A stretch of 64,000 nt of DNA from Methanomicrobiaceae archaeon. Lineage in GTDB: Archaea > Halobacteriota > Methanomicrobia > Methanomicrobiales > Methanoculleaceae. A program made the position numbers and the translations under genes. Below are positions 1 to 56,269 of this stretch, piece by piece (positions within the stretch are counted from its first letter, which is position 1; each line of letters starts with the position of its first letter). The notes beneath the pieces were generated by a model. It saw nothing but the letters and a program-made list of their open reading frames with translations. It was not told the DNA's origin and did no database searches. The DNA is taken from the NCBI GenBank assembly GCA_022837745.1, contig JALHIW010000005.1, positions 16,458 to 80,457 on the forward strand. The letters run 5' to 3'.

Positions 1-671
1 AGATGCTCGTTTGTCTCGATGAGACCCTTGATTATCTCTGCCGGGGTGATATCGAAGTACGGAACAGGGTCGTGGACGTTCTCACAGTTCAGCCCCCATC
101 CCCAGGCCTCGGTTCCACCGGGATTGACGGCCTTGATGGCGAACCCCCGGGTTGCACGGAGTAGCCAGGCAGTATACGCTGCGTTGTTCTCGATCTCATG
201 GTTCTTGAGGTATTCAAGGGTGAACCAGTTGTTAGCGAAGACCGGCATCGCGGCGTTGTCGATGATCGGGGTATCCCGGATCTCCTCGTGAACATGGGGT
301 GAGTGGAGCGGCGGCATCGCCGCCTCGTTGACAAAGACATAGCCCATACGTGCGTAGTCGTAACCGGCCTTGAAGGTGGAGGGAACGGAGAAACCCATCT
401 CCATGCGGCTGCAGCGTTTCAGAGGACTCTTGAATAGTTTATCCTCCGGACGGAAGAGTCGGCCGACATTCACCTTCGGCCCGACCACGTGGGCATGAAT
501 GTCAATACCGCCTCCCATCACGGTCATACCGGATGCATCGATCGTTTCCGGATGCCGCAGAGCGCCTGTCTCCACGATCTTGCCGTCCCTGACCGCGATC
601 TCCATGCGGTCGCCCTTGATCCCCTGCAAGGGGTCAAAGACAAAACCGTTCTTGATCAAAAATTCGCTCAT
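1..671 (-). CDS. fwdA: Formylmethanofuran dehydrogenase subunit A, 5' part (runs off left edge)
   Basis: Manual translation from ATG 671: MSEFLIKNGFVFDP...GGIDIHAHVVGPKVNVGR (amidohydrolase metal motif); directly downstream of fwdB. Not given as one ORF in the track. Confidence 0.93.
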   Translation of the reverse strand, partial: MSEFLIKNGFVFDPLQGIKGDRMEIAVRDGKIVETGALRHPETIDASGMTVMGGGIDIHAHVVGPKVNVGRLFRPEDKLFKSPLKRCSRMEMGFSVPSTFKAGYDYARMGYVFVNEAAMPPLHSPHVHEEIRDTPIIDNAAMPVFANNWFTLEYLKNHEIENNAAYTAWLLRATRGFAIKAVNPGGTEAWGWGLNCENVHDPVPYFDITPAEIIKGLIETNEH

Positions 672-674
672 GCC

Positions 675-2045: not shown

Positions 2046-2461
2046 TACTGTTCACCTCTCCACATTCCAACGGCCCCCTGGACAAGTTCAAGTGCGCTCT
2101 TGCGCCTCTCGCCCCTGGCAGATGGCTCGACCGTCACAGGGAAGCCGCTGTACTGGGGTTCCCCGGTTGCCTGCGTCCTTGGCGGGACGATCTGGTTTGC
2201 CCAGACACCCTGCGGGATGAATGCAAGACCAGGATAGAGAGTCTGGCGTCCCTTAACGACCTTGACAACCACACTCCCGCACTCGCTTGTCACCCGCACA
2301 AGCTGGTTAGGAACCAGGCCGAGCGCCTTGATGTCTTCATCATGCAGCTCGATGATCGAGCATGCCTCAAAGTATTCCGGGGTTGTTTTGCCCTTTTCCA
2401 TCGCGACACCTTCCTCGATGGAACGCTGGGTGATCATGTTCAGCGTAATCTTGTTCGCCAT
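2045..2461 (-). CDS. fwdD: Formylmethanofuran dehydrogenase subunit D
   Basis: 138-aa molybdopterin dinucleotide-binding domain (FIPQGVWAN); abuts fwdB. Confidence 0.92.
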   Translation of the reverse strand: MANKITLNMITQRSIEEGVAMEKGKTTPEYFEACSIIELHDEDIKALGLVPNQLVRVTSECGSVVVKVVKGRQTLYPGLAFIPQGVWANQIVPPRTQATGEPQYSGFPVTVEPSARGERRKSALELVQGAVGMWRGEQ

Positions 2462-3099
2462 AGTTTTTCCTCGATTTAGTTGGTGCGGCCGGTCTCCCGG
2501 AGTTCCGGTGAGATGGCCATGTGGAGCACGGTGAACCCGATAATGCCCTTTTCATCAGGCCCCCTGGATACCAGGAAGATTTACCGGGATTTGCCGTGCC
2601 CGGAACGCGGGTCCTCCCCCCTCACGTGGGGCCCCGCTTATTTGGGGGAAACGAAACTTCCGGGCGGAGCACCGGGTGGATCGTTTTAACATAGCTTGTA
2701 ATGGTTTGTATTTAACCATTCCGCATATGTAAGTAGATATATGTTACAACATTTACATTAAGGTTTTTTGATTTATCCTGCGGTGGCGAGGCGGCGAACC
2801 GGGAAGACCCCGACCAAACTGTGCGGGGATGAAAGCGGAAAACCGCCTCCACCTCGCCCCCTACTTTATAGTTTGCAGGCAGTTCACCGGCAGAGGGGGT
2901 CAGGAGCGTTCGTTTCCCGGATGGACCTGCCCGAGATCCGCCGTTCCTCTGCGAGAACCCCCAAAAGCCCCGCCCTGGAGGCGAGAGGTCGTTCACGCCC
3001 TCAGCCAGCCACAGATGATAATATAGAGACGCGTTACGTTTGATACAATAGCGGAGGGCCAGGATACCCCGGTCTTCAAAATTCAGCCCTTGGAGGGTA

Positions 3100-3420
3100 G
3101 AATTATATATTCCAAGGGTCAAACTTATGAGATTGGTTACTTTTAAGCACTATTTGTGGTTATTATCTGAACTATTGTTATTAATATATATTTTAATATT
3201 ATTTAATGCGTATCCAACATACATAACATATTGGTGCGCCGCATAACAGCCGGATCGACCGAAACTCTTTTAAATATTTCAGATAGATTATTCTGGTCTC
3301 AAAAATCCTACTTTTAAAATATCATAATAAGAATAAATTCTACATAGATAATACTTTTTAAGGGTAATATCTACTTTATTTCGCAAATTTTATTAACACA
3401 TCCTCTCTACCTTTATAGTC
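3100..3420. promoter_or_regulatory. AT-rich promoter region upstream of mcrB with several TATA-like boxes
   Basis: Strongly AT-rich tract in a GC-rich genome; TTTAAATA near 3269 and TTTATTAA near 3389. Exact start site not determinable. Confidence 0.5.
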
Positions 3421-3529
3421 CCTTCTGGGACGTGCAGTAGCGGTCTCTGGAGGATCCGGCGCGGATCGTTACCCCGTCGTATCCTGCATGAACAGAACGT
3501 AGTGATCAATGGTAAAAGGACGAAATACT

Positions 3530-4834
3530 ATGGCTAAATACACGGAAACAATCGATCTCTATTCTGATGATGGTAAACTGCTCAAAAGCGGCGTTACCCT
3601 CGACAGAATCAGCCCGCTGGTTAACCCGGCCACAGGTAAGATCATCGACCTGACCAAGAGAACAATCAGCGTCAACCTTGGCGGCATCCAGGATGCGCTC
3701 AGGACAGGAAAACTCGGAAAGGGCAAGATCAAGGGAAGGGAACTCGACCTCCCGATCATGGAGAACAAGGATGCGATCGTCAGCAGGATCAAAGAGATGG
3801 TCCGGGTTGAGGAGGGCGACGACACCGAGATCCTGGAGTTCAATGGGGGTAAACTCCTGCTTGTCCAGGTCCCGACAAAACGCCTGATCAACGCATCCAC
3901 ATATGATGCCGCAATCACCTCGGTCGCAGCCGCGACAACGCTCGCGATCGTTGATCAGTTCAACATCGACGCGTTTAACGCTTCCACCGTCAAAGCGGCC
4001 TGCTGGGGCAGTTATCCTCACACCCAGGACATGGAGGGTGCGCTTGTCACATCCATCCTCACGATCCCGCAGAACAATGAGGGCATCGGCTACGCGCTCC
4101 GCAACATCCCGGTCAACCATGTCGTCATGATGACAAACAAGAACGCTCTCCAGGGTGCAGCGCTATCATCCACCCTCGAGACCGCCGGGATCTTTGAGAT
4201 GGGATCCGCCATTGGGCCGTTTGAGCGCGCCCAGTTGCTTGCCTACGCATACCAAGGCCTGAACGCGAACAACCTGGTCTACGACCTAGTAAAGGCAAAT
4301 GGTGAGAATGGGACGATCGGAACCGTCGTCCAGAGCCTGGTCGAACGCGCCATCGAGGATAAGGTCATCACCCCCGGCAAAAAGGGCGGCTACTTCCAGT
4401 TCTACGACACGAAGGACCCGATGCTCTGGAACGCCTACACCGCTGCAGGAACCATGGCAGCCACCATCGTCAACTGCGGTGCCGGACGGTTCGCACAGGC
4501 GGTCTCGTCGACGCTCCTCTACTTCAACGACCTGCTCGAGCATGAGACCGGTCTCCCGAGCACCGACTACGGCCGTGTGATGGGTACTGCCGTGGGGTTC
4601 TCGTTCTTCAGCCACTCCATCTACGGCGGCGGCGGTCCCGGTATATTCAACGGCAACCATGTCGTGACCAGACACGCGAACGGCGTGGCCATCCCGTGCG
4701 TCGTCGCCGCGATGGCGCTCGATGCCGGAACCCAGATGTTTTCGCCAGAGAGCACCTCGAAACTCTTCGCCGAGACCTACGGTAAGGTCGACGTCTTCAA
4801 CAAGCCGATCCAGCAGATCGCAAACGGAGCCTGA
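3530..4834 (+). CDS. mcrB: Methyl-coenzyme M reductase beta subunit
   Basis: MAKYTETIDLY start; FSFFSHSIYGGGGPGIFNGNHVVTRH signature; 434 aa, normal length. Confidence 0.98.
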   Translation: MAKYTETIDLYSDDGKLLKSGVTLDRISPLVNPATGKIIDLTKRTISVNLGGIQDALRTGKLGKGKIKGRELDLPIMENKDAIVSRIKEMVRVEEGDDTEILEFNGGKLLLVQVPTKRLINASTYDAAITSVAAATTLAIVDQFNIDAFNASTVKAACWGSYPHTQDMEGALVTSILTIPQNNEGIGYALRNIPVNHVVMMTNKNALQGAALSSTLETAGIFEMGSAIGPFERAQLLAYAYQGLNANNLVYDLVKANGENGTIGTVVQSLVERAIEDKVITPGKKGGYFQFYDTKDPMLWNAYTAAGTMAATIVNCGAGRFAQAVSSTLLYFNDLLEHETGLPSTDYGRVMGTAVGFSFFSHSIYGGGGPGIFNGNHVVTRHANGVAIPCVVAAMALDAGTQMFSPESTSKLFAETYGKVDVFNKPIQQIANGA

Positions 4835-4850
4835 ACGAACAGAGGTTCGA

Positions 4851-5318
4851 ATGACAGACGCCACATTTCCACAGGTCAGGATTGTGCCCCTGAGGTTGCT
4901 CAAACCCGTGACCGCAGAAAGCCTGCTGAATAAACTTGCCGGCATTACCGGTGTCCGCCGGATTCTGGTCCGCGGCCCCGGTCTTCCAGAGGACGTCCCC
5001 TACGGCCCGGCACGAGGAAACCCGAACCCGCACCATGACCGCAGGACGATTAACGTCGGCGATACCGAGATCGCGTTGCGCGTTCAGGTTGGTGAGGTTA
5101 TCCTTGAGGTCGAGGACGACTCCGCAATAACCGAGATCCGGTCGATCTGTGACAACTTCTTCGTGAACTACCCTTACCAGATCCTGATGGGCAGGTTCAT
5201 GAAGACCGATCCGACGCTCGTTGACTACGCGAGGTATGGACCAGATGCCGATCCCGATCTCATCGGTCTCGCTGATCCCCGGAGCAGGGACGGCCCGGTT
5301 ATCATCAGGACTGAATAA
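4851..5318 (+). CDS. mcrD: MCR operon protein D
   Basis: VPYGPARG and GRFMKTDPTLVDYARYG motifs; lies between mcrB and mcrG. Confidence 0.93.
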   Translation: MTDATFPQVRIVPLRLLKPVTAESLLNKLAGITGVRRILVRGPGLPEDVPYGPARGNPNPHHDRRTINVGDTEIALRVQVGEVILEVEDDSAITEIRSICDNFFVNYPYQILMGRFMKTDPTLVDYARYGPDADPDLIGLADPRSRDGPVIIRTE

Positions 5319-5405
5319 CTGCTGTTAAGATGCAGGATTTCGGAAATATGGCTGAAAACTCATTCAAAAGAGGATATATCTACCAACTTTGAGGTGAATG
5401 AAACA

Positions 5406-6101
5406 ATGGAATACAAGCCCCAGTACGGTCCCGGGACATCGATTGTCGCCGAGAACCGACGTAAACAGATGAACCCCGACTACAAACTTGAGAGGGTTCG
5501 CTCAGTAACAGATGAAGATGTTGTGTTGATTCTGGGTCACCGGGCCCCTGGTTCTGCATACCCCTCTGCACACCCGCCGCTTGCCGAACAGCAGGAGCCA
5601 GACTGCCCAATGCGCAGGCTCGTCAAGCCAACCGAGGGTGCAAAGGCCGGTGACCGCGTCCGCTACATCCAGTTCACGGACTCGATGTTCAACGCGCCAT
5701 CACAGCCCTACCAGAGGACATACACCGAGTGCTACCGCTTCCGCGGTATCGACCCGGGCACGCTCTCCGGCCGCCAGATCGTCGAGTGCCGTGAGCGTGA
5801 CCTGGAGAAGTACGCAAAAGAACTTGTCGAGACCGAGCTGCTCGACCCGGCCCGCACAGGCATCCGCGGTGCGACGGTGCACGGCCACTCGCTCCGCCTT
5901 GCCGAGAACGGCATGATGTTTGATATGCTCCAGAGGAGCGTCCTTGGCGAGGACGGGATCGTCCGCTACGTCAAGAACCAGATCGGCGAGCCGCACTCGC
6001 TCGTAGGTACACCCTACCGCGATGACAGAGAGTACATCGAATACATCCAGCGCATCCACTCGCTGCGGACGAAATACGGCTTCATGCCGAAAGAGGAGTG
6101 A
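5406..6101 (+). CDS. mcrG: MCR gamma subunit with an apparent in-frame internal deletion
   Basis: [10 protein letters not shown] start and [12 protein letters not shown] motif; GAGGTGA SD at 5391; only 231 aa, with QIGEP joined directly to HSLVG. Confidence 0.9.
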
Positions 6102-6106
6102 TCAAA

Positions 6107-7752
6107 ATGGCAAAGATTGAGAGAACCCAGAAGTTGTTCCTGAAATCCCTCAAGGAGAAGTTCCAGGGGCAGGAGATCGAGTCTGAGACCGCCGAATTTT
6201 ACAAGTTCAACGGCGTCCGCCAGTCTCCCCGCAAGATGGAGTTTATGAAGGCGAGCCGTGCCATCGAGATGGACCGCGGCATCCCCATGTACGACCCGGA
6301 GCGCTGCCACCTCGGCGGAATACCCATGGGTCAGCGCCAGCTGATGACCTACGAGGTCTCCGGCACCGGCGTCTTCGTGGAGGGCGACGACCTGCACTTC
6401 GTCAACAACGCTGCGATGCAGCAGTTCTGGGACGATATCCGCAGGACGGTCCGGAGACCATCAACGAGTACCTCCACATCCTGAACCACGCAATGCCCGG
6501 TGCGGCAGTTGTCCAGGAGCACATGGTCGAGACCCACCCCGGCCTTGTCGATGACTGTTACGTCAAGGTTTTTACAGGCGACCAGGAGCTCGTAGACGAC
6601 CTGGAGCCCGAGTTTGTCATCGATATCGAGAAACTCTTCCCCACAAAGCAGGCAGAGGAACTCAGGGCAGAAGTCGGCAAAGCCCTCTACCAGGCGATCC
6701 ACATCCCGACAACGGTTGTCCGGACGTGTGACGGCGGAACCACATCCCGCTGGTCTGCGATGCAGATCGGTATGTCCTACATCGCCGCATACCGTATGTG
6801 TGCCGGTGAAGCGGCCGTCGCCGACCTCTCATTCGCGGCAAAGCACGCGGGCGTCGTCCATATGGCAAGCCTGCTGCCAGCCCGGCGTGCTCGCGGTCCG
6901 AACGAGCCCGGCGGCATCAAGTTCGGTCTCTTCAGCGACATCATCCAGGCGAACCGGAAGTACCCCAACGACCCCGCGAAGGCCTCGCTCGAGGTTGTCG
7001 GCGCCGGAACCATGCTCTTTGACCAGATCTGGCTTGGATCATACATGTCCGGCGGTGTCGGGTTCACGCAGTACGCGACCGCGGCCTACACCGACAACAT
7101 CCTGGATGAGTTCACATACTACGGTATGGACTACATCAAGGACAAGTACAAGGTCGACTGGAAGAACCCGAGCCCGAACGACAGAGTCAAGCCGACCCAG
7201 GAGGTCGTCAACGACATTGCAACCGAGGTCTCCCTCAACGCCATGGAGCAGTACGAGCAGTACCCGACCATGATGGAGGACCACTTCGGCGGGTCACAGC
7301 GCGCCGGTGTCATCGCCGCTGCATCGGGTCTCTCGACCTCGATTGCAACCGGGAACTCCAACGCCGGCCTGAACGCCTGGTACCTCTCCATGCTCCTCCA
7401 CAAGGACGGCTGGTCACGTCTCGGGTTCTTCGGCTACGACCTCCAGGACCAGTGCGGTTCCGCGAACTCACTCTCCGTTGAGCCCGACCGCGGTCTGATG
7501 GGCGAACTGCGTGGTCCGAACTACCCGAACTACGCGATGAACGTCGGCCACCAGGGCGAGTACGCTGCAATCGTCGGCGGTGCCCACTACGGCCGCGGTG
7601 ATGCGTTCTGCTACAGCCCCCTCGTCAAGATCTGTTTCGCCGACCCGTCGCTGAAGTTCGACTTCGCCGAACCACGCCGCGAGTTCGCAAAGGGTGCAAT
7701 CCGCGAGTTCATGCCTGCCGGCGAGCGTTCGCTCATCATACCGGCCCGATAA
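6107..7752 (+). pseudogene. mcrA: MCR alpha subunit, frameshifted near 6451
   Basis: First frame gives MAKIERTQK...DDIRRTV and then stops; a second frame resumes [23 protein letters not shown] through to ...[10 protein letters not shown]. May be an assembly artefact. Confidence 0.85.
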
Positions 7753-44727: not shown

Positions 44728-45468
44728 TTAGTTGCACTGGAGTAAACACCGGTAGATCTCACTGTCAACAGGTGGATCGGTGATCACAGATCCCTCTCCC
44801 CAGATGCGGTCATCGCCGCAAGCGGCGTTCTCACCAATGATACCGATCCAAACGTTGCTCTGGTGGGTCTCATCCAACGCATGATACCACGCGTGACGCA
44901 CCTTATAATTGTTAAAGAGCTTGTTTGCGACGGCCGCCCCATCCTGGGCGTAGTCGTAGCCAACCGTGTCGAACCCGCAAACCAGATGGGCACCATTCAA
45001 AGCCCAATGTGGCCACGCTTTGAATTCTCCGGGGACTTGAGCGGTATGGCACGAATGCAGCAAGATCCATTCCAGATCCTGATCGCCCCAATTACAGTCA
45101 TGAAAGTATACCCAGGCGAGAACAAGCGGGAGACCATCCAGAAGGATGCAACTGTCGTCACCGTGTCCTGCCCAGAAGGCGAGGTCTACGCTATCGACAT
45201 GGGCTGCATCTGAATCCCAGTCCCCTATATAGATGTTACACCCCCACCCGGCATTATCGAACACTTCATAGAAGCCTTCGGCAATGGCGGGTGAGTTTGG
45301 CAGGTTGTTCCCGGTGTTATAGTTCTGTTTGTACTCCACCCCGAATTCCGGGGAGATCGCGTCGGAATCGTCGCCCGTCCCGGCACTGACCGGGGCCATG
45401 CATGCCATCCCCATGAAAGCCGTCACCAGGAGCACAGAGAGCACCCGCGCTCCGATGTTTCTGTTCAT
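44728..45468 (-). CDS. Secreted DUF6345-like protein
   Basis: Signal peptide; VDLAFWAGHG, WGDQDLEW...SC and CGF motifs. Confidence 0.7.
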   Translation of the reverse strand: MNRNIGARVLSVLLVTAFMGMACMAPVSAGTGDDSDAISPEFGVEYKQNYNTGNNLPNSPAIAEGFYEVFDNAGWGCNIYIGDWDSDAAHVDSVDLAFWAGHGDDSCILLDGLPLVLAWVYFHDCNWGDQDLEWILLHSCHTAQVPGEFKAWPHWALNGAHLVCGFDTVGYDYAQDGAAVANKLFNNYKVRHAWYHALDETHQSNVWIGIIGENAACGDDRIWGEGSVITDPPVDSEIYRCLLQCN

Positions 45469-45477
45469 TGTCGTTTT

Positions 45478-45640
45478 CCTCCAACCTTTTCCCGGAGGCA
45501 GGAGAGGCGCACGTTTAAGTACGCAGAACGCTTACGTTCCCTTTGCCTCCGGGCTTGCGGGGCTCTATCATCCGGGCGTCAACCGTGGATGGGGGGACCC
45601 CACGAACTTTTGCAGACGCATCATCGAGGCGCCCCCACAA
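45478..45640 (-). ncRNA. Conserved structured 5' leader, copy A (candidate cis-regulatory RNA)
   Basis: Lies between TATA 45660-45667 and SD; stems covary with copy B. Confidence 0.65.
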
Positions 45641-45905
45641 GGACATGGACGTAAGTTTATTTATAAATTCTGTCCCATTCCTTTACATGTTCTGGGGCTG
45701 TTACCAAAACTGCCGAAAACAAATCCTCCTCCTGAGGTAAAAACACAGGAGATCATTCTTCTTGCGACGGTGTGTGCAACCGTTTCCGGCTGGCAACCCT
45801 CAAGGGACGCGATGAGAAACAGGATACGGGAAAAGTTCCGATACTCAATATGACCAGCGGGAAAAAGAGAGTGTACTTACTCCGCCACAGGAACGAGCTG
45901 GATAC

Positions 45906-46319
45906 CTACCTCCCAAGCGCCCGCACAAACCGCTCCCGGATCTCGGCCGGGGCGAGAGGGATGTTTCCGACCGGTGCGTTCCCGGGATTCAGAACAACGT
46001 GGATGAAGTTCGGTCCCCGGCCCCGGCTCTCCCATGCCTCCTCGAGTTCCTCCTCGTCCTGCACCTTGCACGTATTCCGGATCCCGGCGGCACGGGCGAG
46101 GAGCTCCATGTCCACCAGACCGGAGGCCGGGGTAGGCTGGTTTCCCGTGCTCCCGAAGGCCCCGTTGTCCAGGCAGACGATCGTGAGGTTCTTCGGGGCC
46201 TCGGCGGCCACCACCGGGAGGACGGCGGTCCCGAGCAGGCTCCCATCGCCGTCGAGGACGACGATGATCCCTGCCGTTTTGAGCCGGTTCCTTGATTTTG
46301 GATTCTTGTCTTCTTCCAT
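45906..46319 (-). pseudogene. Chimeric fragment: unrelated N-terminus fused to the C-terminal part of a TPP-binding sulfopyruvate decarboxylase (ComE-like)
   Basis: DGDGSLL...LDNGAFGSTGNQPT TPP motif is preceded by only about 20 non-homologous residues. Confidence 0.7.
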
Positions 46320-46344
46320 TTCGGTTACACCTCCCAACCCGGTC

Positions 46345-46794
46345 TTAGTGGAGCAGAACGCGAGTAGAGTAATATGCACCCTCGTACTCAAGGTATGGCC
46401 GGTCCCCCTCCCTTGCATCGATACCGAACGACTCGAGGAGTACAAGATGTTCTGTACCCGTTACCGGAGCTCTCCCAATCTTGCGTTCGTCGGGATCGTC
46501 ATTGGGGCTGCCCTCCAGTTTCCATGGATGGGGATCTCTGTTATCTCCCCGGATCACCTAATTGAGCGCCGGAAACTGTTCTAAATCCTGTTCGGTCAGG
46601 TGAATGATGGAGGCGTTTTCCAGATGCTCTCCCCAGACTTCCCGCACATCCAGATCCTGCGGAAGGCCATCGACTCCCGTGATCAGGGCAACGAGGGTGG
46701 TACATGTGAGCGCGACCGTCGCGACAAGGAGGGCAGCGCCGATGAACGCAAGGACTCCCATTATAATCAGACGTCTGTTGAATTTCGATTCCAT
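46345..46794 (-). pseudogene. Membrane-anchored hypothetical protein split by an in-frame TAG at 46558-46560
   Basis: ORFs 46558..46794 and 46345..46557 are in one frame, separated only by the amber codon. Confidence 0.7.
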
Positions 46795-46965
46795 ATAACC
46801 GCCCTCATCTCCTTCATCGGATTCTGCCGGGAGGGGATCGTCCTATTTCCATACCAGTGGTTCCCATTAATTTTTCTATCACACGTTTTGCTTCAGATTT
46901 CCGTATCCAAACCTACAGAGCCAGGATAATATCTTTTCAACGGGAAGGGCGGCGCGTTCACGCCC

Positions 46966-47454
46966 TCACAAGCCCGCTGGAGCAGAGATATTCAACTTTC
47001 TTTCGAGTATAGTCGATGTGAGCGAAAACTGCCCTTCTCCAGATTCGGGTGAGGAAAGCGATACGCTCATCAATCCCGAACCCATCTGCCCGGATTCTAG
47101 AGAGGTGCTATATGGTCTCCCAGCAGGATCCCAGACCGTCAGGGTGAAGACCGCTATTTTCTCGTCGTTGGGCTCATCGTTCCGGATGTCCCTCCACGTA
47201 GCTGTGAAGGTGCTCCCTCCGATCCCGGCCTCAACGAAAGGAACCGGGTTAGAAAACGACATGTTTCTCTCGGGGTCGGCAGAAGCATCGCCGAGATAAT
47301 AGGTACCATGGGAGATATTGTCCAGAAAGACAATTCTGCCGCCCAAAGTGGTAGTATTCACCACAGCATCCTCCCTGGCATACGACATCACATACGCCAG
47401 AGCACCGGCAAGACCTACCATCAAGACGATGACACACACTATTTTCCTGTTCAT
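46966..47454 (-). CDS. Secreted/membrane-anchored hypothetical protein
   Basis: N-terminal hydrophobic helix; FTAT...LTVWD motif shared with the upstream gene. Confidence 0.7.
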   Translation of the reverse strand: MNRKIVCVIVLMVGLAGALAYVMSYAREDAVVNTTTLGGRIVFLDNISHGTYYLGDASADPERNMSFSNPVPFVEAGIGGSTFTATWRDIRNDEPNDEKIAVFTLTVWDPAGRPYSTSLESGQMGSGLMSVSLSSPESGEGQFSLTSTILERKLNISAPAGL

Positions 47455-47508
47455 AATGACCACCACTGCGGTTCAAAAATAGTGCATCCATGAAGATGCA
47501 CCCCCTTT

Positions 47509-48012
47509 TCAGGCAAAGTCAAGGTCGCCGATGTAGGGACCCCCAACTGCCATCGTAGTATCGAACCAGTCGTGGGTCTCACACCACAGTTCATACTGAG
47601 CGTCGCCGCTGCCCTGTGAATTGAAGGTCACGCTGATTGTACCACTGGTCGCCCAGTCAACCCTTTTTTCGGTAGTGTGCGCCACGCCCAGGGCGTCCCA
47701 TACCGTCAGACGGTAGATTGCCCCCTGGCCGTCATTGTCCCGGTCGTTATCATTGCTGTACGTCGCCGTGAAGGTGTTCTGCCCTGCCGGAGCAGTGACG
47801 CACCCCACACCGGCCACGCTTGCCGTATTGCCGTCGCCATCGGTAGACATGCTCCCCAGATGTATGGTGGCCAGAATCCCGATGTCGCCCGTATTCTCCT
47901 CTACAGACATTTCAGAATCGGCTTGAGCCGCAGAAACTGCCCCGGCGGATACCGATACAAAGAGTATCAGTACTGCCAGCATTGACAGAAGCCCGTTTCC
48001 TTTCTTCATCAT
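47509..48012 (-). CDS. Secreted hypothetical protein
   Basis: MKK signal peptide, GGAGGT SD and FTAT...LTVWD motif. Confidence 0.8.
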   Translation of the reverse strand: MMKKGNGLLSMLAVLILFVSVSAGAVSAAQADSEMSVEENTGDIGILATIHLGSMSTDGDGNTASVAGVGCVTAPAGQNTFTATYSNDNDRDNDGQGAIYRLTVWDALGVAHTTEKRVDWATSGTISVTFNSQGSGDAQYELWCETHDWFDTTMAVGGPYIGDLDFA

Positions 48013-48017
48013 CAGGT

Positions 48018-48178
48018 ACCTCCGTTTTCGGTTCCCGGAGGCACACGCACACGTTTAAGTCTGCAGAGTGTGTACACTCTCATTGCCTCCAGGCACGCGG
48101 GACGTTCACCCGCCGTTTGGCATATCAGCCGGGTGGACCTCCGCACTGGTGCAGGCGCCGCCTGCGGCACCTACAAGT
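48018..48178 (-). ncRNA. Conserved structured 5' leader, copy B
   Basis: 48050-48093 aligns without gaps to 45510-45553, with compensatory changes. Confidence 0.65.
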
Positions 48179-48210
48179 GTTCACTTGTCAGTTTTGAGAT
48201 AAACCGTTTA

Positions 48211-48228
48211 TGGGACAAACACCAATTC
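48211..48228 (-). promoter_or_regulatory. 18-bp operator, copy 1 (GAATTGGTGTTTGTCCCA on minus strand)
   Basis: 7 nt upstream of the TTTATC box at 48198-48203. Confidence 0.7.
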
Positions 48229-48529
48229 GACACGCGACTTTTCTGGAAAATAGCAGGGATAACGCCCCGGGATCGCCATAGACAACTCCACCTGCATGAG
48301 ACCCTCACAGGAGAATTCCCTCCCGATGGAAAATGCAGGGCTGGTATGAGCAGCATTGTTCCGGGAGATTCGGTACTGGGGTTCCCTCCCCGTGCGTTGC
48401 GCGCAGGCCGTCCCGCTACGCCCGCACCGCACCAATCTCTTCAGATATAGTGGCTCCAGGCACGGTACGGCCGTGTTGCTCCTCAAACACGTTCACCTCC
48501 AGGAAAGGAAGAGGGCAGAGACGAGAATA

Positions 48530-48547
48530 GAATTGGTGTTTGTCCCA
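48530..48547 (+). promoter_or_regulatory. 18-bp operator, copy 2
   Basis: Identical to copy 1; 7 nt upstream of CATAAA at 48555. Confidence 0.7.
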
Positions 48548-48582
48548 GAAAACTCATAAAGTGCGGATCACAACTATCCATC

Positions 48583-49035
48583 ATGGCATCAGCAAAGAGG
48601 AAATGTATGGCTTTTGCCCTGCTGCTCGTCGTATCCTTCCTTGCCGTGCCCCCGGTGGCGGCAACGGAAGGTGACGGCTACACGGTTCGGCCCTCGGGAT
48701 CAGACGACCTGGTGACGACCCTGCGGCTCTCCGACAGTATCGGGCAGGGTGAGACCAACAGGCACCAGTTCTATGTCGGAAGCGGCGTCGCATATCTCGA
48801 AGTATACCTGAACTGGGGATCGACCTCCGATTCCCTGGCGTTGACTATATACGCTCCTTCAGGGAGCAAGATCGGCACGTTCCACGACAACGCCGACGGA
48901 GTTGTAGATGGTAAAATTCATATAGACATTGACCCGGATAGTAGTTATGTAAGCCAGGGGACGTGGGCGTTCGATGTATACGGTGAGAAAGTTTCATCAG
49001 AGAGATCATACACCTTCAACGTCTACCCGTACTAG
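48583..49035 (+). CDS. Secreted stand-alone PPC (pre-peptidase C-terminal)-like domain protein
   Basis: Signal peptide; LNWGSTSDSLALTIYAPSG...GTWAFDVYG beta-sandwich motif. Confidence 0.8.
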   Translation: MASAKRKCMAFALLLVVSFLAVPPVAATEGDGYTVRPSGSDDLVTTLRLSDSIGQGETNRHQFYVGSGVAYLEVYLNWGSTSDSLALTIYAPSGSKIGTFHDNADGVVDGKIHIDIDPDSSYVSQGTWAFDVYGEKVSSERSYTFNVYPY

Positions 49036-49819
49036 GCCAGGCAGACTTCTCCGGCTGTTCACCCTCTCGGTCCTCTTTTTAGTGCTGCTGGTAACGGTTG
49101 CCGATGCCACCGAATACACGGTCCGGCCTTCGAGAAACGTCGGAAAAGAGCCCGGCATGTCCGTATCTGGCGAGAAGGTGCAGGAGATCGACCCGATCCC
49201 GCTCTGGCTCTTCCTGTTGCTGTCTGTTTTCCCCCAGTTGGCAGCGGCCCCGATCGAGACCCTTCTTCCCCTGAAGACCGTCGGATATCTCGGGTACAAG
49301 CGGATCTGCAAAGAAAACGCTCTTGAGAGTCCGCAGAGACGCAAGATCTTGAGATTTGTCAAGAGGAACCCTGGATTGCACTTCAGGGAGATATTGAGGC
49401 GTGTACCTCTGACGCGGGGGACGCTTGATCACCATATGAAAACAATGGAATCCGTGGGCCTCTTAAAGACGGTATCGGGAAGAGGGAGGGTTCATTATTT
49501 CGTCGCAGATTCATCATATTCGGCCGAGGAAGAGATCCTTATCACCGTACTGAGGAATGAGAGTCTGCGGAGAATTATAACAGAGATCTATCTCAATCAA
49601 GGTGCATGCAACGAAGAAATTGCAGAAGACGTCGGACTATCCGGAGCTACAGTTTATGAACATCTACGATACCTGAAAGATCTGGGTGTTGTGATCGCTG
49701 AGAGGGACGGGCGGTGTGTGCGGTATACCCTCGCCGAGAGTTATTCTCGTATACTGGCGGGTATGCGGATCATTATACCGAACCGGCCCGGAATGCGGCT
49801 GATCCCGCCGGATAGATAG
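48974..49819 (+). CDS. Membrane-anchored tandem winged-helix transcriptional regulator
   Basis: Two hydrophobic segments, then NPGLHFREILR...RGTLDHH and LSGATVYEHLRYL; start uncertain. Confidence 0.8.
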   Translation: MYTVRKFHQRDHTPSTSTRTRPGRLLRLFTLSVLFLVLLVTVADATEYTVRPSRNVGKEPGMSVSGEKVQEIDPIPLWLFLLLSVFPQLAAAPIETLLPLKTVGYLGYKRICKENALESPQRRKILRFVKRNPGLHFREILRRVPLTRGTLDHHMKTMESVGLLKTVSGRGRVHYFVADSSYSAEEEILITVLRNESLRRIITEIYLNQGACNEEIAEDVGLSGATVYEHLRYLKDLGVVIAERDGRCVRYTLAESYSRILAGMRIIIPNRPGMRLIPPDR

Positions 49820-50023
49820 CCCCGGGGAGTGATATCAGCGGCCTCATCTCTCAACTGAGGTTTGACCCGGACTCCCACGTTGGCGATCATTCCTCGTGAC
49901 GCCCGGCCCCGAGTGCGCACCCTGCTGCACACCAGTCTTTTGGGGGAAGCACCGGAGTATCAGGTTCCGATACCTGCACTCCTGCTCTTTTTCCCTGAAC
50001 TTGAGGTCTCTGAGCGCCCGGAT

Positions 50024-50041
50024 GAATCGGCGTTTGTCCGA
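50024..50041 (+). promoter_or_regulatory. 18-bp operator, copy 3 (15/18 match)
   Basis: GAATCGGCGTTTGTCCGA, 7 nt upstream of TATAAA at 50049. Confidence 0.65.
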
Positions 50042-50074
50042 GAAACGGTATAAAGAAGGACAGCGAAGTCTCCA

Positions 50075-50215
50075 TCGGGGAAGCCGCACGCGGTATCCCG
50101 AGGGGGCCGGGTGTCTCGATTGGCGTCGGATCCCGGACTCCCACCGCGTGCCCGGAGGGCAATAGGGCTGTTGGCTGTCATCGGGGATAGCCGTTGTGGT
50201 TCTGCGGTCTCCCAG
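50075..50215 (+). ncRNA. Diverged copy C of the structured leader
   Basis: CCGCGTGCCCGGAGGGCAAT at 50144-50163 nearly matches copy B CCGCGTGCCTGGAGGCAAT; similar upstream stems. Confidence 0.45.
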
Positions 50216-50241
50216 AGCACGCATGAATGAGGTGAAAACCA

Positions 50242-51034
50242 ATGAAGATGAAATTGATTGGAAAGATATTTCCCGCTCTTACGTTAGCACTCATGTGCGG
50301 TGCTCTCGTTTCGCTTGTCGGGGCATGGGAGATAGACCCTATTAATGAACCGATTGCTGCGAATATCTCGGTCGATGATGGTATGCATCCTTTGTGGACG
50401 GGATACCCATACCCAGGTATTGGGGATGCTGACGTTCATAACGACTTGGCAAAGGTTGCAGGGCTAAAGATGGGACTTCCAGTTGAGTACTACAGTTGGC
50501 TGAGTAAACTGGCAGGACAACCAGATGATCCTAACTTCGATGACTATACGCTCCATCCGAGTGAAACGCACTATGGCTCACACTCTTCCTTTCATGAAGA
50601 ACGCCCCGGAGGTTGCAGAGTACTATGCGAATAAAGCAAGGGACTACATCAGAAATGGTGACCCTAACAACGGGTATATTCAGTTGGCGTATGCCATGCA
50701 TTTCATGTCGGATATGGGCTGCCCGTATCATTACACCTACGAAGGTCTAGCCAATCATCCAAAATATGAAGGATTTGTCGGGGACAATTGGCATACCGGG
50801 CATTATTTTTACAGAGATATCTTAGATGCCGATTATTATTACTCGATATCTGATGTAAGCGATGCTGCAAACAATCTCGCAAACGCTGCACATCAGTACC
50901 AGAGTTATTTTGATAGTCAGATCTGGCACAACTCAGACTGGAAAATCGATCCGAAACTCATTGAAGATACAAGGACTGTCCTTATATATACCGAAAGGTA
51001 CGATCGAGGCCTTGTCGATTATGTAAACAGATAG
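50242..51034 (+). pseudogene. Secreted Zn-dependent phospholipase C / S1-P1 nuclease family protein, frameshifted near 50580
   Basis: Signal peptide and W...H...D...HY in the first frame; AMHFMSDMGCPYH...HPKYE in the second frame. Confidence 0.75.
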
Positions 51035-51067
51035 ATATCTTCCCATTTTCTCCGGAAACTGATTGTC

Positions 51068-51958
51068 ATGACAAAACAACCCAGCCAAAGAACCCTTACC
51101 GCCCTCCTGGGCCTGGCCGTCTTCCTTACCATCTCGGTCCCGTGCAGTCTCCTCATCGTTCTCGGAACCGGGTGTCCTGGTGCCCTGGCAGCAGCGCTCA
51201 CCCTCCTCCTGGGAGGGATTCTCATGCTCCTGATCCTCCAGAGATACCGGAAGTACAGGTATCGGCCGGGCCCCGCTCTGCTCGCGGTCGTCATCGGGTG
51301 TGCCGGTGCGCTCCTGGCAGTCCTCGGCGTTCTTATCTTCGGCCTTGCCTGGGCTGATGTCAACCCAGCCACCTACACCTACCGGGTCACGGTCACCGGA
51401 CTCGATAACTATACCGGCGGTCCTGTCACCGACATCCTGGTTCCACTCCCGCTTCGTGAGGGAAAGATGATCTTCTCCGAAGAAGACCTTGAAGGGCAGC
51501 GCGTTGGCGCCTGGAAGACTCTCTTTGCAGAGACACCGAAGGGAAGGATGCTTGTCTTCCAGACCATGGAGCGCGATCTCTCGGATATCAGCGTGACCTT
51601 TGGGAGTCCGGTGGAGAAGTACTTCCTCATCGATGATATAACCAGAGAATCCTTCAGCCCGGTCGTCACCGAGGCACCGGCCGGGTATACCAGGTGGGCC
51701 TTTGGGACCGGGGATGTTCAGAACTTTACCACCCTGGTCAGGCTCGATGAGGGGATCAGGCCTAAGACTGCTGATGCCGGGCCGATCGTCATCCACCTCT
51801 GGATTACAGCAGGTGGCGGACGTCTCCATGGCATCACCGGGGAGAAGTACCAGGTTGAGGTTTATGAGGCGATTCCTCCCGGTGTCACCGGCTTTGTCCC
51901 GGTGAGGGCCCAGGTGGCCAGGTTCGGGGATGTGGGGATCGTACCGGTGAGAGAATGA
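51068..51958 (+). CDS. Membrane protein with three TM segments and an extracellular domain, paralog 1
   Basis: TDILVPLPLREG and GRMLVFQ motifs shared with the next gene. Confidence 0.75.
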   Translation: MTKQPSQRTLTALLGLAVFLTISVPCSLLIVLGTGCPGALAAALTLLLGGILMLLILQRYRKYRYRPGPALLAVVIGCAGALLAVLGVLIFGLAWADVNPATYTYRVTVTGLDNYTGGPVTDILVPLPLREGKMIFSEEDLEGQRVGAWKTLFAETPKGRMLVFQTMERDLSDISVTFGSPVEKYFLIDDITRESFSPVVTEAPAGYTRWAFGTGDVQNFTTLVRLDEGIRPKTADAGPIVIHLWITAGGGRLHGITGEKYQVEVYEAIPPGVTGFVPVRAQVARFGDVGIVPVRE

Positions 51959-52124
51959 GGTGAGATGTGTGCACTACAGCCAACCATCGCAGATTGGGGA
52001 GAGGGGGTGGGGAGAGTTCAACGCGCTGGAGGGAAACATTATGGGGCGCAACGCCGAGGTCTCAACCGGGAAAGCCACGTGAGCCCGGGACCTCCCGCTC
52101 AGCCTCGCACACCCTCATGATCCC

Positions 52125-52916
52125 ATGAAGACCCCTGAAACCCGTACCATTACCCTGCTCATCGCCATCCTCCTCCCGCTGGCCTACCTGACCTACTGGT
52201 TCCTCCGCATGAGTTCGCTCCCCCTCATCGCTGACGTAGTGCTCGCCGCTGGTGTCATCGCCGCCGTGGCCCTGGGAATCATTGCGCGTCGGAGGGGAGC
52301 GGCGGTCCGCTGGCTCACGGCCTCGTTCGTCGTCGGTCTCGTTCTCTGCGGCCTGATCTTCCTCGGCATGGGCATCTGGGCCGGGTGGTATGAGCACCGT
52401 CCCGGCCTTGTCGGTTACCAGGTCTGGGTAGACGGTCTTGAAGGCCGGACCGGAGGGCTCATAACAACGATCCTCGTCCCCCTCCCGGTGGAGGATGGCG
52501 AGGTGATCATGCCGGCGTCCGAGTTTGAGAACCGGACGTTCGATGGCTGGACAACGACCATCGTCGAGACAGAGGATGGAAAGATGCTTGCGTTCCAGAA
52601 CCGGAACAACACCCTGACCGACATCTGGGCTCACTTCACGCGCTACGAGGAGACCATAGAAGGGACAAGGCGCCTCCCGAAAGAGCACCTCTCACCGGTG
52701 ATCGAGAGGACCACGGACGACCACTACACAACGGTCATCTTCGTGGACGAGGGCATCAGCCCGCCCGGAGAACTGAGGGTCACCCTCAGGTTGACAGCGG
52801 GGTGCGACCTCTTCCACGGGATGGCGGAGGACACCTACCGGACAGAGGTGAAGGAAACTATTCCCGCCGGGACAGCGGGGCGGATCGTCGTCGATGCGAT
52901 GGTCGGGAAGTATTGA
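52125..52916 (+). CDS. Membrane protein, paralog 2
   Basis: TTILVPLPVEDG and GKMLAFQ motifs. Confidence 0.75.
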   Translation: MKTPETRTITLLIAILLPLAYLTYWFLRMSSLPLIADVVLAAGVIAAVALGIIARRRGAAVRWLTASFVVGLVLCGLIFLGMGIWAGWYEHRPGLVGYQVWVDGLEGRTGGLITTILVPLPVEDGEVIMPASEFENRTFDGWTTTIVETEDGKMLAFQNRNNTLTDIWAHFTRYEETIEGTRRLPKEHLSPVIERTTDDHYTTVIFVDEGISPPGELRVTLRLTAGCDLFHGMAEDTYRTEVKETIPAGTAGRIVVDAMVGKY

Positions 52917-53964: not shown

Positions 53965-54321
53965 TTAATCCCTGGTGGGCTTCGTGGACAAGAGTATCGG
54001 CTCGCCAGGAGAACCGATGGTCGCCCGGACCCTGAAGGGGGGAGACGGTGTCCCAGGCGATGTCAGAACCCCCGAGGGGCCGACCGCGACGACATGGATC
54101 ACCAGGAGGTCGTCGATGACCGAGAGGATTGTCCGGTAATCCCCGACCCTGAGCGAGTAGAACGCGGGGTTGTCCGGCCTCTTTAGTTTCCTGAGATGCT
54201 TCTTCGGGTCGGTCTCGCCAGCGAGCGATGCGAGTTCCTCACCAATCCGCACTGCTATGGGTCGTGGAATGCTCCTCGAGGTTGTGACGGGCCTCGCGGT
54301 GATGACCACGCGGTAGGTCAT
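53965..54321 (-). pseudogene. RelE/ParE-family toxin with aberrant C-terminus
   Basis: YSLRVGDYR...IHVVAVG followed by a non-homologous read-through tail. Confidence 0.7.
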
Positions 54322-54555
54322 TCCTCCTTCAGATCCGCCATGGCCTCATCCAGAGTGTAGACTCTCCCGGCCCTGAGATCCTCGAGCGACCGTTCGAGGT
54401 CCCTCCCGTATTGTCTCTTCACTGAGCGGCTCCTTGTTGACTGCCATAACCACCAGACGCTCGATTACCTCGCTGTACGACTCCCGGGGATGAATCTTCA
54501 GGGCGTTGAGTCGTCCCTTGAGTTCGGTGTCGATCTTGATGGTGGTGCTAGTCAT
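54318..54555 (-). pseudogene. Antitoxin, frameshifted near 54405
   Basis: TTIKID...LKIHPRESYSEVIERL; the other frame resumes DLERSLEDLRAGRVYTLDEAMADLKEE and its stop overlaps the relE ATG. Confidence 0.75.
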
Positions 54556-54746
54556 ACTGAGGTACACTTCGGTTTACCCAATGGAGGTTTGCATTGGCGG
54601 ATGCCGTGCGGTATCCTGCGGTGGTCCGGGTCGGTCATGGCGACAGTGCCCTGCCCCCACCACGTCCGCATCTACCCCGGATGCGATAAGCGACCGGTCA
54701 AATGATGCTGTTTGAAAATCTCCAGGATCGCTCTGGGTAGTTGTAT

Positions 54747-55411
54747 TCAGGAAAACATGCCCATGTCTAACCCCGACAGGACCTCGTGGCCCCGGGCGGG
54801 GAGGTCCCCTCCGGCGCCAGGGTGCCCGGTGACGGGGAGGTCTCCCATATACCGGTTGAGGAACTCCAGGGCACCAGTGGAGAGCCTGTAGCAGAAGGTT
54901 CTCTCCTCCCTATCGACGGTGACGATTCCTTCGTCCTCGAACTGCTGCATCTGCCAGGAGACCGTCGGGCCGGAGAGCCCGAGTCGTTCTGCGATCTCGT
55001 TTCGGGTTGCTCCCGGCAACCTGAGAAGGTGTGCCAGTATCGCCCCCGGGGTCTCGTCCCGGAGGCTGGCGATGATGCGCTTCTCGAGGGCGGTATGCCG
55101 CTGGTTCCGCGCAAAGTGCCGGAAGCGGTTCCGGTAGTCCACGGCAGCCACCTTGCCTTCCCTGATGAGCATATCGAGATGGTAGCGGAGCCGCCCTCGC
55201 GATGCGCCCGTCAACTTCAGGAGTTCACAGGTGCTGGCACCGGAGTGGATAGTGATCTGCCGCTAGAGGTCGCGCCTGAAGTCGTCGTTGAGGATGTTAT
55301 GGCGCGTCACCCACCGGAACCCGAGCGGCAGGAGGAGGCTGAGCGCGACGGCGGCGACGCCGATGAACGCAAAAACCCCACGAAAATCAGGCGTTTGTTC
55401 CCAGACTCCAT
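54747..55411 (-). pseudogene. Membrane-anchored wHTH regulator with a frameshift (55371-55379) and an in-frame TAG (55263-55265)
   Basis: GFRWVTRHNIL, RLRYHLDML and LSGPTVSWQM motifs; MESGNKRLIF start lies in another frame. Confidence 0.7.
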
Positions 55412-55443: not shown

Positions 55444-56034
55444 CTAATCTATCGGAACGAGGGGCCCCGCGGGCACATCCTTTGAACTGTATATGACGTG
55501 CAACGGGGACGCCGACTGCTCGGCACGCGCACGGGGCTCGACCGGGATAATCCAGAACGTCTCGTTGCCGAAGACTATGCTCCCGACGAGGACGTTGTTC
55601 CCGATCGTCAGGAGGATATCGCTTTCGTCAACGCCGACGATCACCCCTTCGTAGGTGTTGATACCGTCATCGATCTGTTCGAAGTTCATCCCGTGCTGTT
55701 CGGCCCGGTACGCCATACCATGGATAGAAAGCGGGAATCCATCCCGGATCTCTCGCGAGAGGGCAGCGTGGTCGAACGCCACAACGTCGTACCGCTTGAT
55801 GCCCTTCGGGATCTGCAGTTCTTCCGGTGCCGGGATCCCGGCGGCCGCGAGATCGGAGAGCGACGCGGCGCCCGTGACGAGCACGGTCATGGTGTCGCCG
55901 ATGACCAGAGGCGGGGTGTTGTCACCCACGGCTGGAGATCCCGTCCCATCCTGAGCGCATGAAACCAGCGCGATCGCCACTACAACGATCAGGCATACCA
56001 GGAGGGCGATGCCTCCCACGTGAGATTGCTTCAT
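55444..56034 (-). CDS. Secreted/lipoprotein-like protein resembling a metallopeptidase pro-domain
   Basis: Hydrophobic N-terminus; YEGVIVG...LVGSIVFGNETFWIIPVE...HVIYSS; no HExxH. Confidence 0.6.
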   Translation of the reverse strand: MKQSHVGGIALLVCLIVVVAIALVSCAQDGTGSPAVGDNTPPLVIGDTMTVLVTGAASLSDLAAAGIPAPEELQIPKGIKRYDVVAFDHAALSREIRDGFPLSIHGMAYRAEQHGMNFEQIDDGINTYEGVIVGVDESDILLTIGNNVLVGSIVFGNETFWIIPVEPRARAEQSASPLHVIYSSKDVPAGPLVPID

Positions 56035-56269
56035 TCTTTTTCCTCTGGTGCATCTCCCGGGACAGGTGCACCCGGGTTTTCCACGTGGGAGAGGTCGACC
56101 TCCTCCTATAAGCGATCTCTGTGACACGCGTCTACATGTCGGGCCCCTCCGATCACTCCCAGACCAAAAACCTCCTGTACAAACCCCGGAACGGGAGGCG
56201 CGCCGAACGGCGGGAGTAACTCGTGCAGGGAACCGCCAGAAAAATCAGGAGAACGTGAGGAGAGGGGCG

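Follow-up and report, generated by a model that had tools for sequence, protein, structure and literature searches.

The window analysed here is a stretch of 64,000 nucleotides from a Methanomicrobiaceae archaeon (contig JALHIW010000005.1, assembly GCA_022837745.1) in which an 18-bp word, referred to below as the operator, occurs three times, each copy being placed 7 nt upstream of a TATA-like element. The copies precede three transcription units, designated T1, T2 and T3, the second of which contains the gene of a predicted membrane-bound regulator with two winged helix-turn-helix (wHTH) domains. The features on which the argument turns are listed below in window coordinates, with scores from a position weight matrix (PWM); BRE stands for the TFB recognition element and TM for transmembrane.

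48211-48228, minus strand: operator copy 1 (T1), GAATTGGTGTTTGTCCCA, exact match, PWM score 53 bits
48530-48547, plus strand: operator copy 2 (T2), GAATTGGTGTTTGTCCCA, exact match, PWM score 49 bits
50024-50041, plus strand: operator copy 3 (T3), GAATCGGCGTTTGTCCGA, three mismatches with respect to GAATTGGTGTTTGTCCCA, PWM score 45 bits
48196-48210, minus strand: T1 core promoter, with BRE-like TAAACGG (48204-48210; the 7 nt after the 18-mer) and TATA-like TTTATCTC (48196-48203)
48548-48562, plus strand: T2 core promoter, with BRE-like GAAAACT (the 7 nt after the 18-mer) and a weak TATA, CATAAAGT
50042-50056, plus strand: T3 core promoter, with BRE-like GAAACGG (the 7 nt after the 18-mer) and TATA TATAAAGA
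48229 to about 48430, minus strand: upstream module of the T1 cassette, ~200 nt, non-coding, forming the bulk of the interior between the inverted copies 1 and 2
48974-49819, plus strand: predicted transmembrane transcription regulator, 281 aa, with a signal/TM helix, an outside segment of ~30 aa, a TM helix and two ArsR-like wHTH domains
49988-49992, plus strand: T5 run, likely end of the T2 transcript

Three operator copies and the promoters they precede

A word search confirmed the coordinates and strands that a first-pass annotation had given for the three copies, two of which are exact and one of which carries three mismatches. Its claim that each is followed by 7 nt and then by a TATA-like hexamer also proved correct at all three, the hexamers being TTTATC (48198-48203, minus strand), CATAAA (48555-48560) and TATAAA (50049-50054). 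Across 100 shuffles that preserved the dinucleotide composition of the window, three matches with at most three mismatches never occurred (mean 0.03), the G+C content around the locus being 50-65%. The PWM was built from 45 related sites and extends from the 18-mer through the 7 nt to the end of the TATA octamer; beyond the three known sites, nothing in the 64-kb window reaches 8 bits, and the same matrix gave no match in 20 shuffles of the window.

The conservation analysis drew on 24 related loci, found in Methanoculleus, in Methanofollis and in relatives of these, the locus of the Methanofollis ethanolicus orthologue P0044 lying outside the comparison. Loci L001-L005 are those of orthologous regulators, 58-88% identical to that of the window. 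Loci L006-L019 came from a scan for GARTYGGTGTTTGTCCCANAAA in 185,579 species-representative genomes, made with the exact word and not with the PWM, and all belong to Methanoculleus or an unclassified close relative; in this collection the exact word is confined to Methanoculleus-type genomes. The window and L001-L019 together supply the 45 unique sites, and the layout is the same in 45/45 of them, namely the 18-mer, a BRE-like 7 nt of the form K-AAA-nnn and a TATA-like octamer, at constant spacing. The 18-mer holds 27.9 bits of information versus 5.5 bits in the 12 nt upstream, the flanks falling to ~0.5 bit per position directly at the edge of the word. Since the AAA at +2 to +4 after the 18-mer is invariant, the conserved word really comprises 22 nt: GArTyGGTGTTTGTCCcA-kAAA. 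The sites fall into three promoter types:

Type T1, 21 unique sites: TATA T(A/T)TATCTC, followed by a conserved leader of ~160 nt and secreted-protein genes
Type T2, 12 unique sites: TATA CATAAA(A/G)(C/T), with the ATG exactly 35 nt after the 18-mer, followed by the gene of a PPC-domain protein and the regulator gene
Type T3, 12-13 unique sites: TATA TATAAAGA or TATATGGG, followed by a different leader of constant length, with ~200 nt to the ATG

These promoters have only the 22-nt word and its spacing in common and, because they differ in flanks, TATA and downstream sequence, the identity of the word was not simply inherited from duplication. The 12 unique T2 18-mers vary at position 5 only (T or C), and the ATG was found at +35 from the 18-mer in 10/10 T2 loci examined. 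Copy 1 is identical or has one mismatch in L001-L005, where the regulator has diverged to the extent given above. When five orthologous T1-T2 intergenic regions were aligned, the 18-mers were 94-100% identical and the core promoters nearly invariant, while only 33-77% of the columns of the interior were invariant. Two of the three variant bases of copy 3 recur in T1 or T2 sites elsewhere, and its position is occupied in orthologous loci by variants of the GAnyTGATGATTGTCCTA type. Identity that stops at the edges of a 22-nt island, the contexts around it being unrelated, is the outcome expected of selection on a binding site. The data support the view that the operator copies are a cis-element under selection at a fixed distance from the BRE/TATA of three transcription units.

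Transcripts were followed in assembled contigs of public metatranscriptomes, which carry neither strand information nor read ends, and the start positions are therefore approximate. On the T1 side RNA contigs end at 48166 (run X33), 48162 (X37 and X32), 48153 (X25) and 48109 (X34), and on the T2 side they start at 48593 (X33), 48597 (X25), 48598 (X34) and 48620 (X37 and X32), the T2 contig starts falling at 48591-48598 in four runs. Two of the runs are clean, X33, which is a stranded library, and X37; in neither of them does an RNA contig cover 48167-48592, and the coverage of 48417-48563 is zero in X33, X37, X32, X25 and X28. These ends fit T1 and T2 starts ~26-30 nt downstream of the TATA octamers, which would place the 18-mers at about -38 to -58, in untranscribed DNA. 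The ATG at 48583 lies only 20 nt after the T2 TATA, so that the T2 mRNA would be leaderless or nearly so; at the other end of this unit, T2 contigs terminate at 49933-50034 in six runs, around the T5 run. T1 and T2 are co-expressed in all metatranscriptomes examined. When considered as an element of the upstream activating sequence (UAS) type, the word adjoins BRE/TATA on the upstream side, with a transcript start ~25 nt downstream for T1 and T2, and it is conserved above its surroundings both across species and across non-homologous promoters.

The neighbouring regulator and its link to the operator

Judged from its domains and structural model, the product of 48974-49819 is a transmembrane transcription regulator (TTR) that combines DNA-binding domains and predicted TM helices in one chain. 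Pfam places HTH_HVO_0163_N at residues 121-184 and HTH_24/HTH_5 (ArsR) at residues 194-240, and the AlphaFold2 model contains helices at 23-43 and 77-97 followed by a tandem wHTH at 110-265 with a predicted local distance difference test score (pLDDT) of at least 90. The hydrophobic helices are conserved in all orthologues. The first-pass annotation had spoken of soluble wHTH domains; the whole protein would not be soluble, having two predicted TM helices and, between them, a highly conserved 30-aa segment exposed outside the membrane. This outside segment and the second TM helix are in fact the best-conserved part of the protein, more so than the DNA-binding domains. The conserved stretch, A-(T/A)-E-YTVRPS...EIDPIPLWL...FPQL..APIE, is kept even in a homologue at 41% alignment identity (46% by BLAST). 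Close homologues of the regulator all come from the genus Methanoculleus, to which the DNA of the window is assigned on this ground.

The relatives found in the PDB are single ArsR/SmtB-type domains (SmtB, CzrA, CadC, HlyU and NolR) and assorted tandem winged-helix proteins, and the fold search returned no full-length structural relative suggesting a DNA-binding geometry. In NCBIfam the wHTH domains match a metalloregulator subfamily and the SdpR autorepressor subfamily. Set against an ArsR/SmtB metal-sensing repressor, the regulator agrees in its domains but departs in its tandem, membrane-anchored form and in the placement of the predicted site upstream of the core promoter.

In the neighbourhood of the sites no DNA-binding gene other than that of the regulator is constant, and the word and the regulator have a matching narrow distribution. 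The adjacent wHTH gene had been named at the outset as the candidate binder, and it does lie 3' of the T2 site in every T2 locus that is long enough. The T2 site precedes it in 10/10 Methanoculleus loci with enough downstream sequence, and it is retained in the distant loci L021-L023, the locus of L024 beginning too near the gene to show its T2 site.

These distant loci also reveal how the word varies. In L022-L024, which are Methanofollis-like and have a regulator 53-56% identical, 5/7 sites begin with GATTCG, the T at position 3 being present in only 2/45 Methanoculleus sites. In L021, where the regulator is 46% identical by BLAST and 41% in the multiple alignment, both inverted sites begin with AGTTAGG. 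The 3' half, TTGTCC(C/T)A-KAAA, is unchanged in the sites of L021-L024. The comparison thus supports a 5' half of the operator that varies from lineage to lineage, most sites of a given genome sharing the change, seemingly in step with the regulator. The conserved blocks GA..yG and TTGTC are ~10 bp apart, which would put them on the same face of the helix and would suit two linked wHTH domains.

Paralogues of the regulator also occur. One, 30% identical, is located in the window at ~54750-55400 on the minus strand, after the gene of a secreted 227-aa protein (55444-56127, minus strand); its frame contains an in-frame TAG (...FRRDL*RQITIHSG...), and it is probably a pseudogene. Another, in L006 (3475-4611), carries a C-terminal fusion to a RecA/RadB/KaiC-like ATPase and adjoins a T1 cassette and a PPC-like gene.

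Sign of regulation and competing explanations

We infer that the 18-mer is quite probably the binding site of the neighbouring transmembrane regulator, which would control its own synthesis and would probably act as an activator. The 22-nt word abutting BRE/TATA would then be a protein-binding promoter element situated at about -38 to -58 from each start. Its most likely ligand would be the product of 48974-49819, whose two cytoplasmic wHTH domains in one chain could form a pseudo-dimer for an asymmetric two-part site. The membrane regulator would in this way control its own leaderless T2 operon (PPC gene and regulator gene), the divergent T1 operon of secreted proteins and the downstream T3 operon, which encodes a phospholipase C-like enzyme and two membrane proteins. 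Activation would be achieved by aiding the loading of TFB and the TATA-binding protein (TBP), and the signal would probably be sensed via the conserved outside and TM segment.

Activation is suggested by the site always lying upstream of BRE at an invariant distance and by the poor T2 TATA; in contrast, the promoter of the window that precedes a T1-type leader with no operator has a textbook TATA, TTTATAAATA. Archaeal factors bound just upstream of BRE/TATA are usually activators, as exemplified by Ptr2, TFB-RF1, GvpE and EarA, and archaeal repressors usually overlap, or sit downstream of, the TATA or the start site. The position that the first-pass annotation had stressed is indeed the one typical of archaeal activators, the site being wholly upstream of BRE.

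Several observations weigh against this interpretation. ArsR/SmtB-type proteins are classically repressors. Residue changes in the recognition helices could not be assigned to base changes in the operator, both helices being variable. In several species the T3 operators depart from the word at 5-6 positions and might be sites for a paralogous regulator; one such paralogue adjoins a T3-like cassette in L005 and another is the broken copy at ~54750-55400 of the window. As regards RNA, left-unit contigs pass the 18-mer in X28 (to 48249) and X30 (to 48245), and X31 thinly covers the interior between copies 1 and 2; an upstream start or DNA carry-over could account for the coverage in these three runs. 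Finally, T2 contigs read through to ~50076-50080 in X37 and X39, past the T3 operator, which leaves a separate T3 start putative.

In the main rival explanation the regulator binds the 18-mer as an ArsR-type autorepressor, blocking TFB/TBP loading until a membrane signal is received. Both wHTH domains are ArsR/SmtB-like (metalloregulator and SdpR subfamilies, with SmtB, CzrA and CadC among the PDB relatives), the conserved word extends into BRE through its invariant AAA, so that a bound protein could occlude BRE, and the T3 TATA, TATAAAGA, is not weak. This explanation is nevertheless rather unlikely, as sites wholly upstream of BRE are usually activating and the strictly invariant spacing suggests a stereospecific contact. 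Moreover, the fold also occurs outside repressors, as HlyU and NolR illustrate, and T1 and T2 are expressed together in all the metatranscriptomes examined.

It is quite unlikely that the 18-mer is read by another factor, be it a transmembrane wHTH paralogue or a general factor with an extended BRE, the regulator being merely a member of the regulon. A BRE measures 6-7 bp, not 22, the regulator gene is the sole DNA-binding gene always found with the sites and is itself driven by one, and the 5' half of the operator changes with the regulator lineage. Paralogues of the same architecture are nonetheless encoded at ~54750-55400 of the window (with the in-frame stop, which speaks against that copy), L005 11856-12758, L006 3475-4611 and L023 3493-4287. 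T1 cassettes are also found on contigs devoid of the regulator gene (for example L008 and L014), and T3-type variants form a subclass of their own.

In another view the copies are identical because promoter cassettes were recently copied or underwent gene conversion, the 18-mer itself having no specific function. Whole T1 cassettes (~200 nt upstream, promoter, leader and signal peptide) are repeated within genomes at ~82% identity before unrelated genes. This is however very improbable as an account of the word, considering that T1, T2 and T3 share only the 22 nt and their spacing, that the flanks drop to ~0.5 bit per position at the word edge, and that different genera retain the word although their intergenic regions have otherwise diverged.

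The idea that 48211-48547 is a mobile or invertible unit, that is, a 337-bp miniature inverted-repeat transposable element (MITE) bounded by 18-bp terminal inverted repeats or a phase-variation switch that a recombinase inverts, has a perfect 18-bp inverted repeat around ~300 bp in its favour and can practically be dismissed. The inverted pair is collinear in 10/10 paired Methanoculleus loci with a spacing of 318-322 bp and is found also in two distant loci with spacings of 209 and 263 bp. Copy 3 and every T3 site are unpaired, and the sole viral-contig match is a chance match in AT-rich DNA. As a MITE, the stretch does have inverted repeats, but it has no target duplication (ccgttta on one flank, gaaaact on the other), is present as a block in 12/12 paired loci, and its interior occurs alone, in T1 cassettes without a second repeat. 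As an inverton, it was found in one orientation in the 12 loci and in the DNA contigs of four metagenomes (up to 437x depth), which match the window exactly without strand-switch joints, rare variants being able to hide in contigs; there is no recombinase gene in the conserved neighbourhood. The first-pass annotation had named a presence/absence pattern of this block, with a target duplication, as the outcome that would speak for a MITE, and neither was found. What it had described as a perfect inverted pair is exact in sequence but consists of two independent promoter elements, not of one unit.

The upstream module at 48229 to about 48430 aligns with sequence upstream of unpaired T1 cassettes elsewhere, which follow another gene and lack a second inverted 18-mer, indicating that the 300-bp interior is the T1 upstream module rather than a repeat-bounded unit. 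A small palindrome, TTTTC-TG-GAAAA, is located in it at 48239-48250, 10 nt upstream of the operator, its family form being TTTTC-yr-GAAAA. Conserved non-coding blocks were also observed in the module, especially at 48395-48425 (CTGCGCGCAGGCCG.CCCG), in addition to the palindrome, and the RNA contigs of two runs stop exactly at the latter (48245 and 48249). A 34-aa antisense open reading frame (conserved ATG at 48347, plus strand) was rejected as a gene, its length and frame not being kept in 20 cassette copies, one of which has no ATG.

If the transmembrane regulator does bind the operator, the system would resemble several known ones in part. A site directly upstream of BRE is shared with other Euryarchaeota, namely with the GvpE UAS of haloarchaeal gas-vesicle promoters, TFB-RF1 of Pyrococcus, Ptr2 of Methanocaldococcus and EarA of Methanococcus. 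Such factors activate by aiding TBP/TFB recruitment, and gvpA and gvpD have divergent promoters with a site each. GvpE, Ptr2 and similar factors are, in contrast to the regulator, soluble proteins of other families (bZIP-like GvpE, Lrp-type Ptr2) with shorter or symmetric sites. To our knowledge, none of GvpE, TFB-RF1, Ptr2 and EarA is membrane-tethered or has an invariant 7-nt offset across dozens of promoters. Like ToxR, TcpP and CadC, which are TTRs, the regulator has a DNA-binding domain and a TM region in one protein thought to act from the membrane; bacterial TTRs differ in having OmpR-type wHTH domains and large periplasmic sensors, the outside part being ~30 aa here. As in SarS, a two-domain SarA homologue, a single chain with two wHTH domains can stand in for a homodimer. 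ArsR/SmtB repressors are dissimilar, since the regulator is membrane-anchored and its predicted site precedes the core promoter instead of overlying it. Methanomicrobia have been reported as enriched in TTRs (Demey et al. 2023, PMC10269533).

A close parallel among archaea is offered by ArnR/ArnR1, which in Sulfolobus acidocaldarius are bound to the membrane and activate the archaellum promoter, with boxes at -43 to -84 (PMC6396743, in which EarA is also mentioned). Both are archaeal membrane-anchored one-component regulators with a site, predicted in the present case, upstream of the BRE/TATA of surface-structure genes. ArnR has an N-terminal HTH, a HAMP-like and a sensor domain and two C-terminal TM helices, and its boxes are 15-bp inverted repeats, TCGAC-N5-GTCGA, both of which are required (PMC6396743). 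The regulator described here has instead N-terminal TM helices, two wHTH domains in one chain and a single asymmetric 18-22 bp word flush with BRE. Pfam found no HAMP domain in it, and the two proteins are not homologous, which sets the regulator apart from the ArnR family. In the literature searched there is no described target for an archaeal TTR of the ArsR-tandem type, ArnR being the only one worked out in archaea, and nothing pertinent on HVO_0163 or Methanoculleus promoters. The best reading of the sequences is that of an archaeal factor site upstream of BRE that would be read by a transmembrane one-component regulator.

The locus represents a clean experimental entry point, with a defined 22-nt site in three promoter contexts (one leaderless, the others with long leaders), natural variants in related genera that indicate where a change of base is tolerated, and a cytoplasmic domain that should express easily. 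It could reveal what contacts with TFB/TBP an archaeal factor makes when its position is fixed, and how DNA is reached by a factor bound to the membrane. It would also delimit a regulon for secreted enzymes and surface proteins in the dominant methanogens of biogas reactors.

Leaders and genes of the proposed regulon

The leaders and the genes downstream of the operators are the following.

48013-48172, minus strand: T1 5' leader, ~160 nt, with a hairpin, the long-range stem CCYGGAGGC/GCCTCCGGG, an inner hairpin and the Shine-Dalgarno sequence GGAGG before the ATG
50057-50241, plus strand: T3 leader, a conserved family of its own (13 aligned), the 3' half of which is homologous to the T1 leader (GCGTGCCCGGAGGGCAAT ... 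GGAGG-ATG)
45457-45631, minus strand: third T1-type leader (nhmmer E 6e-25), before the gene of a secreted DUF6345 protein (44728-45468, minus strand), with TATA TTTATAAATA and no operator
46966-48012, minus strand: T1 operon, two paralogous secreted proteins, 47509-48012 (167 aa) and 46966-47466 (166 aa)
48583-49035, plus strand: PPC-domain secreted protein, 150 aa, first T2 gene (Pfam PPC E 4e-5, just below the cut-off)
50242-52916, plus strand: T3 operon, the gene of a secreted zinc phospholipase C-like enzyme (50242-50634 and 50525-51034) and two paralogous membrane proteins (51068-51958 and 52125-52916)

The T1 leader was aligned in 18 copies standing before unrelated genes, with a mean column identity of 82%. 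In the predicted fold 95.9% of the cells are paired and compensatory changes occur at three pairs only, which gives the fold modest support from covariation. A hidden Markov model of the T1 leader matches 50144-50253 (E 1e-3), within the homologous half of the T3 leader and the beginning of the gene, and the core of the T3 leader, 50146-50175, recurs in other, more abundant RNA contigs. Searched against Rfam, the whole window gave no match that reached the gathering score, and 45300-50400 gave none with E <=1. The heptamer TGGGACA, the reverse complement of the 3' end of the operator, was noticed directly upstream of the TATA TTTATAAATA of the third leader.

As this third copy lacks an operator, the leader is a module separate from it. 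The two-tier control suggested in the first-pass annotation, in which two of the three transcripts would combine the operator with a structured leader, is right in that T1 and T3 have leaders, but the leader is not tied to the operator and T3 shares only its 3' half. Two-tier control is possible in the form of two separable modules, with a putative function for the RNA.

The two T1 proteins have signal peptides and are 32% identical to each other, and both genes are transcribed in metatranscriptomes. Neither the T1 products nor the two T3 membrane proteins belong to a Pfam or NCBIfam family. The T3 enzyme gene is split by a +1 frameshift near 50570-50590, which is identical in the DNA contigs of four metagenomes and must consequently be either a real pseudogene mutation or a recoding site. 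The read-through product matches Bacillus cereus phospholipase C across the junction (PDB 1ah7 and 2fgn, E 4e-4 to 9e-4, a weak match) and gave no Pfam match; its mature N-terminus would begin with Trp, as in the B. cereus enzyme.

The PPC gene overlaps the regulator gene by 62 nt. It is broken or deleted, with the regulator intact, in L001/L002 (by insertion of an IS605 TnpB), L003, L005, L016 and L022, that is, in about five lineages, and must therefore be dispensable. The IS200/IS605 TnpB (OrfB) genes inside it occupy 4546-5796 in L001 and 2994-4244 in L002, where the T2 promoter lies ~1.5 kb from the regulator gene. The motif YTVRPS was observed both in the N-terminus of the mature PPC protein (..G-YT[VI]RPS..) and at the start of the outside segment of the regulator (A-T-E-YTVRPS..), a sharing seen in all lineages examined (the window, L004, L009, L013, L015, L019, L021, L023 and L024).

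In relatives, T1 and T3 cassettes precede genes for S8 subtilases with PPC domains, PepSY/DUF4901 proteins, ABC-2 permeases and other secreted proteins. In some genomes as many as four T1 cassettes are present within 16 kb, and cassettes are in part located on other contigs. The local regulon proposed in the first-pass annotation is clustered, as claimed, but not strictly local, given these further T1/T3 cassettes. In L021, the most distant of the orthologous loci, a T1-like operator and leader precede the divergent operon (122-6165, minus strand) on the other side of the regulator; its products include two S8 subtilisin-like proteases, of which one has a PPC domain. This hints at secreted hydrolases as the theme of the regulon.

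A more far-reaching proposal would make the regulator a membrane-tethered sensor of the secreted proteins of its own cell. The tandem wHTH would be switched on by cleavage of, or binding to, the outside segment, for which secreted proteases such as those of the regulon in relatives would be candidates. From the membrane the regulator would then activate a set of portable cassettes, each consisting of operator, promoter, 160-nt leader and signal peptide. The leader would function as a new riboregulator, freeing or hiding the ribosome-binding site through the triad CCYGGAGGC / GCCTCCGGG / GGAGG. Taken as a whole, this proposal is unlikely.

Between the regulon and the paralogous regulator of the window, a pair formed by a RelE/ParE-type toxin-like and a ribbon-helix-helix antitoxin-like protein is encoded at 53965-54567 on the minus strand.

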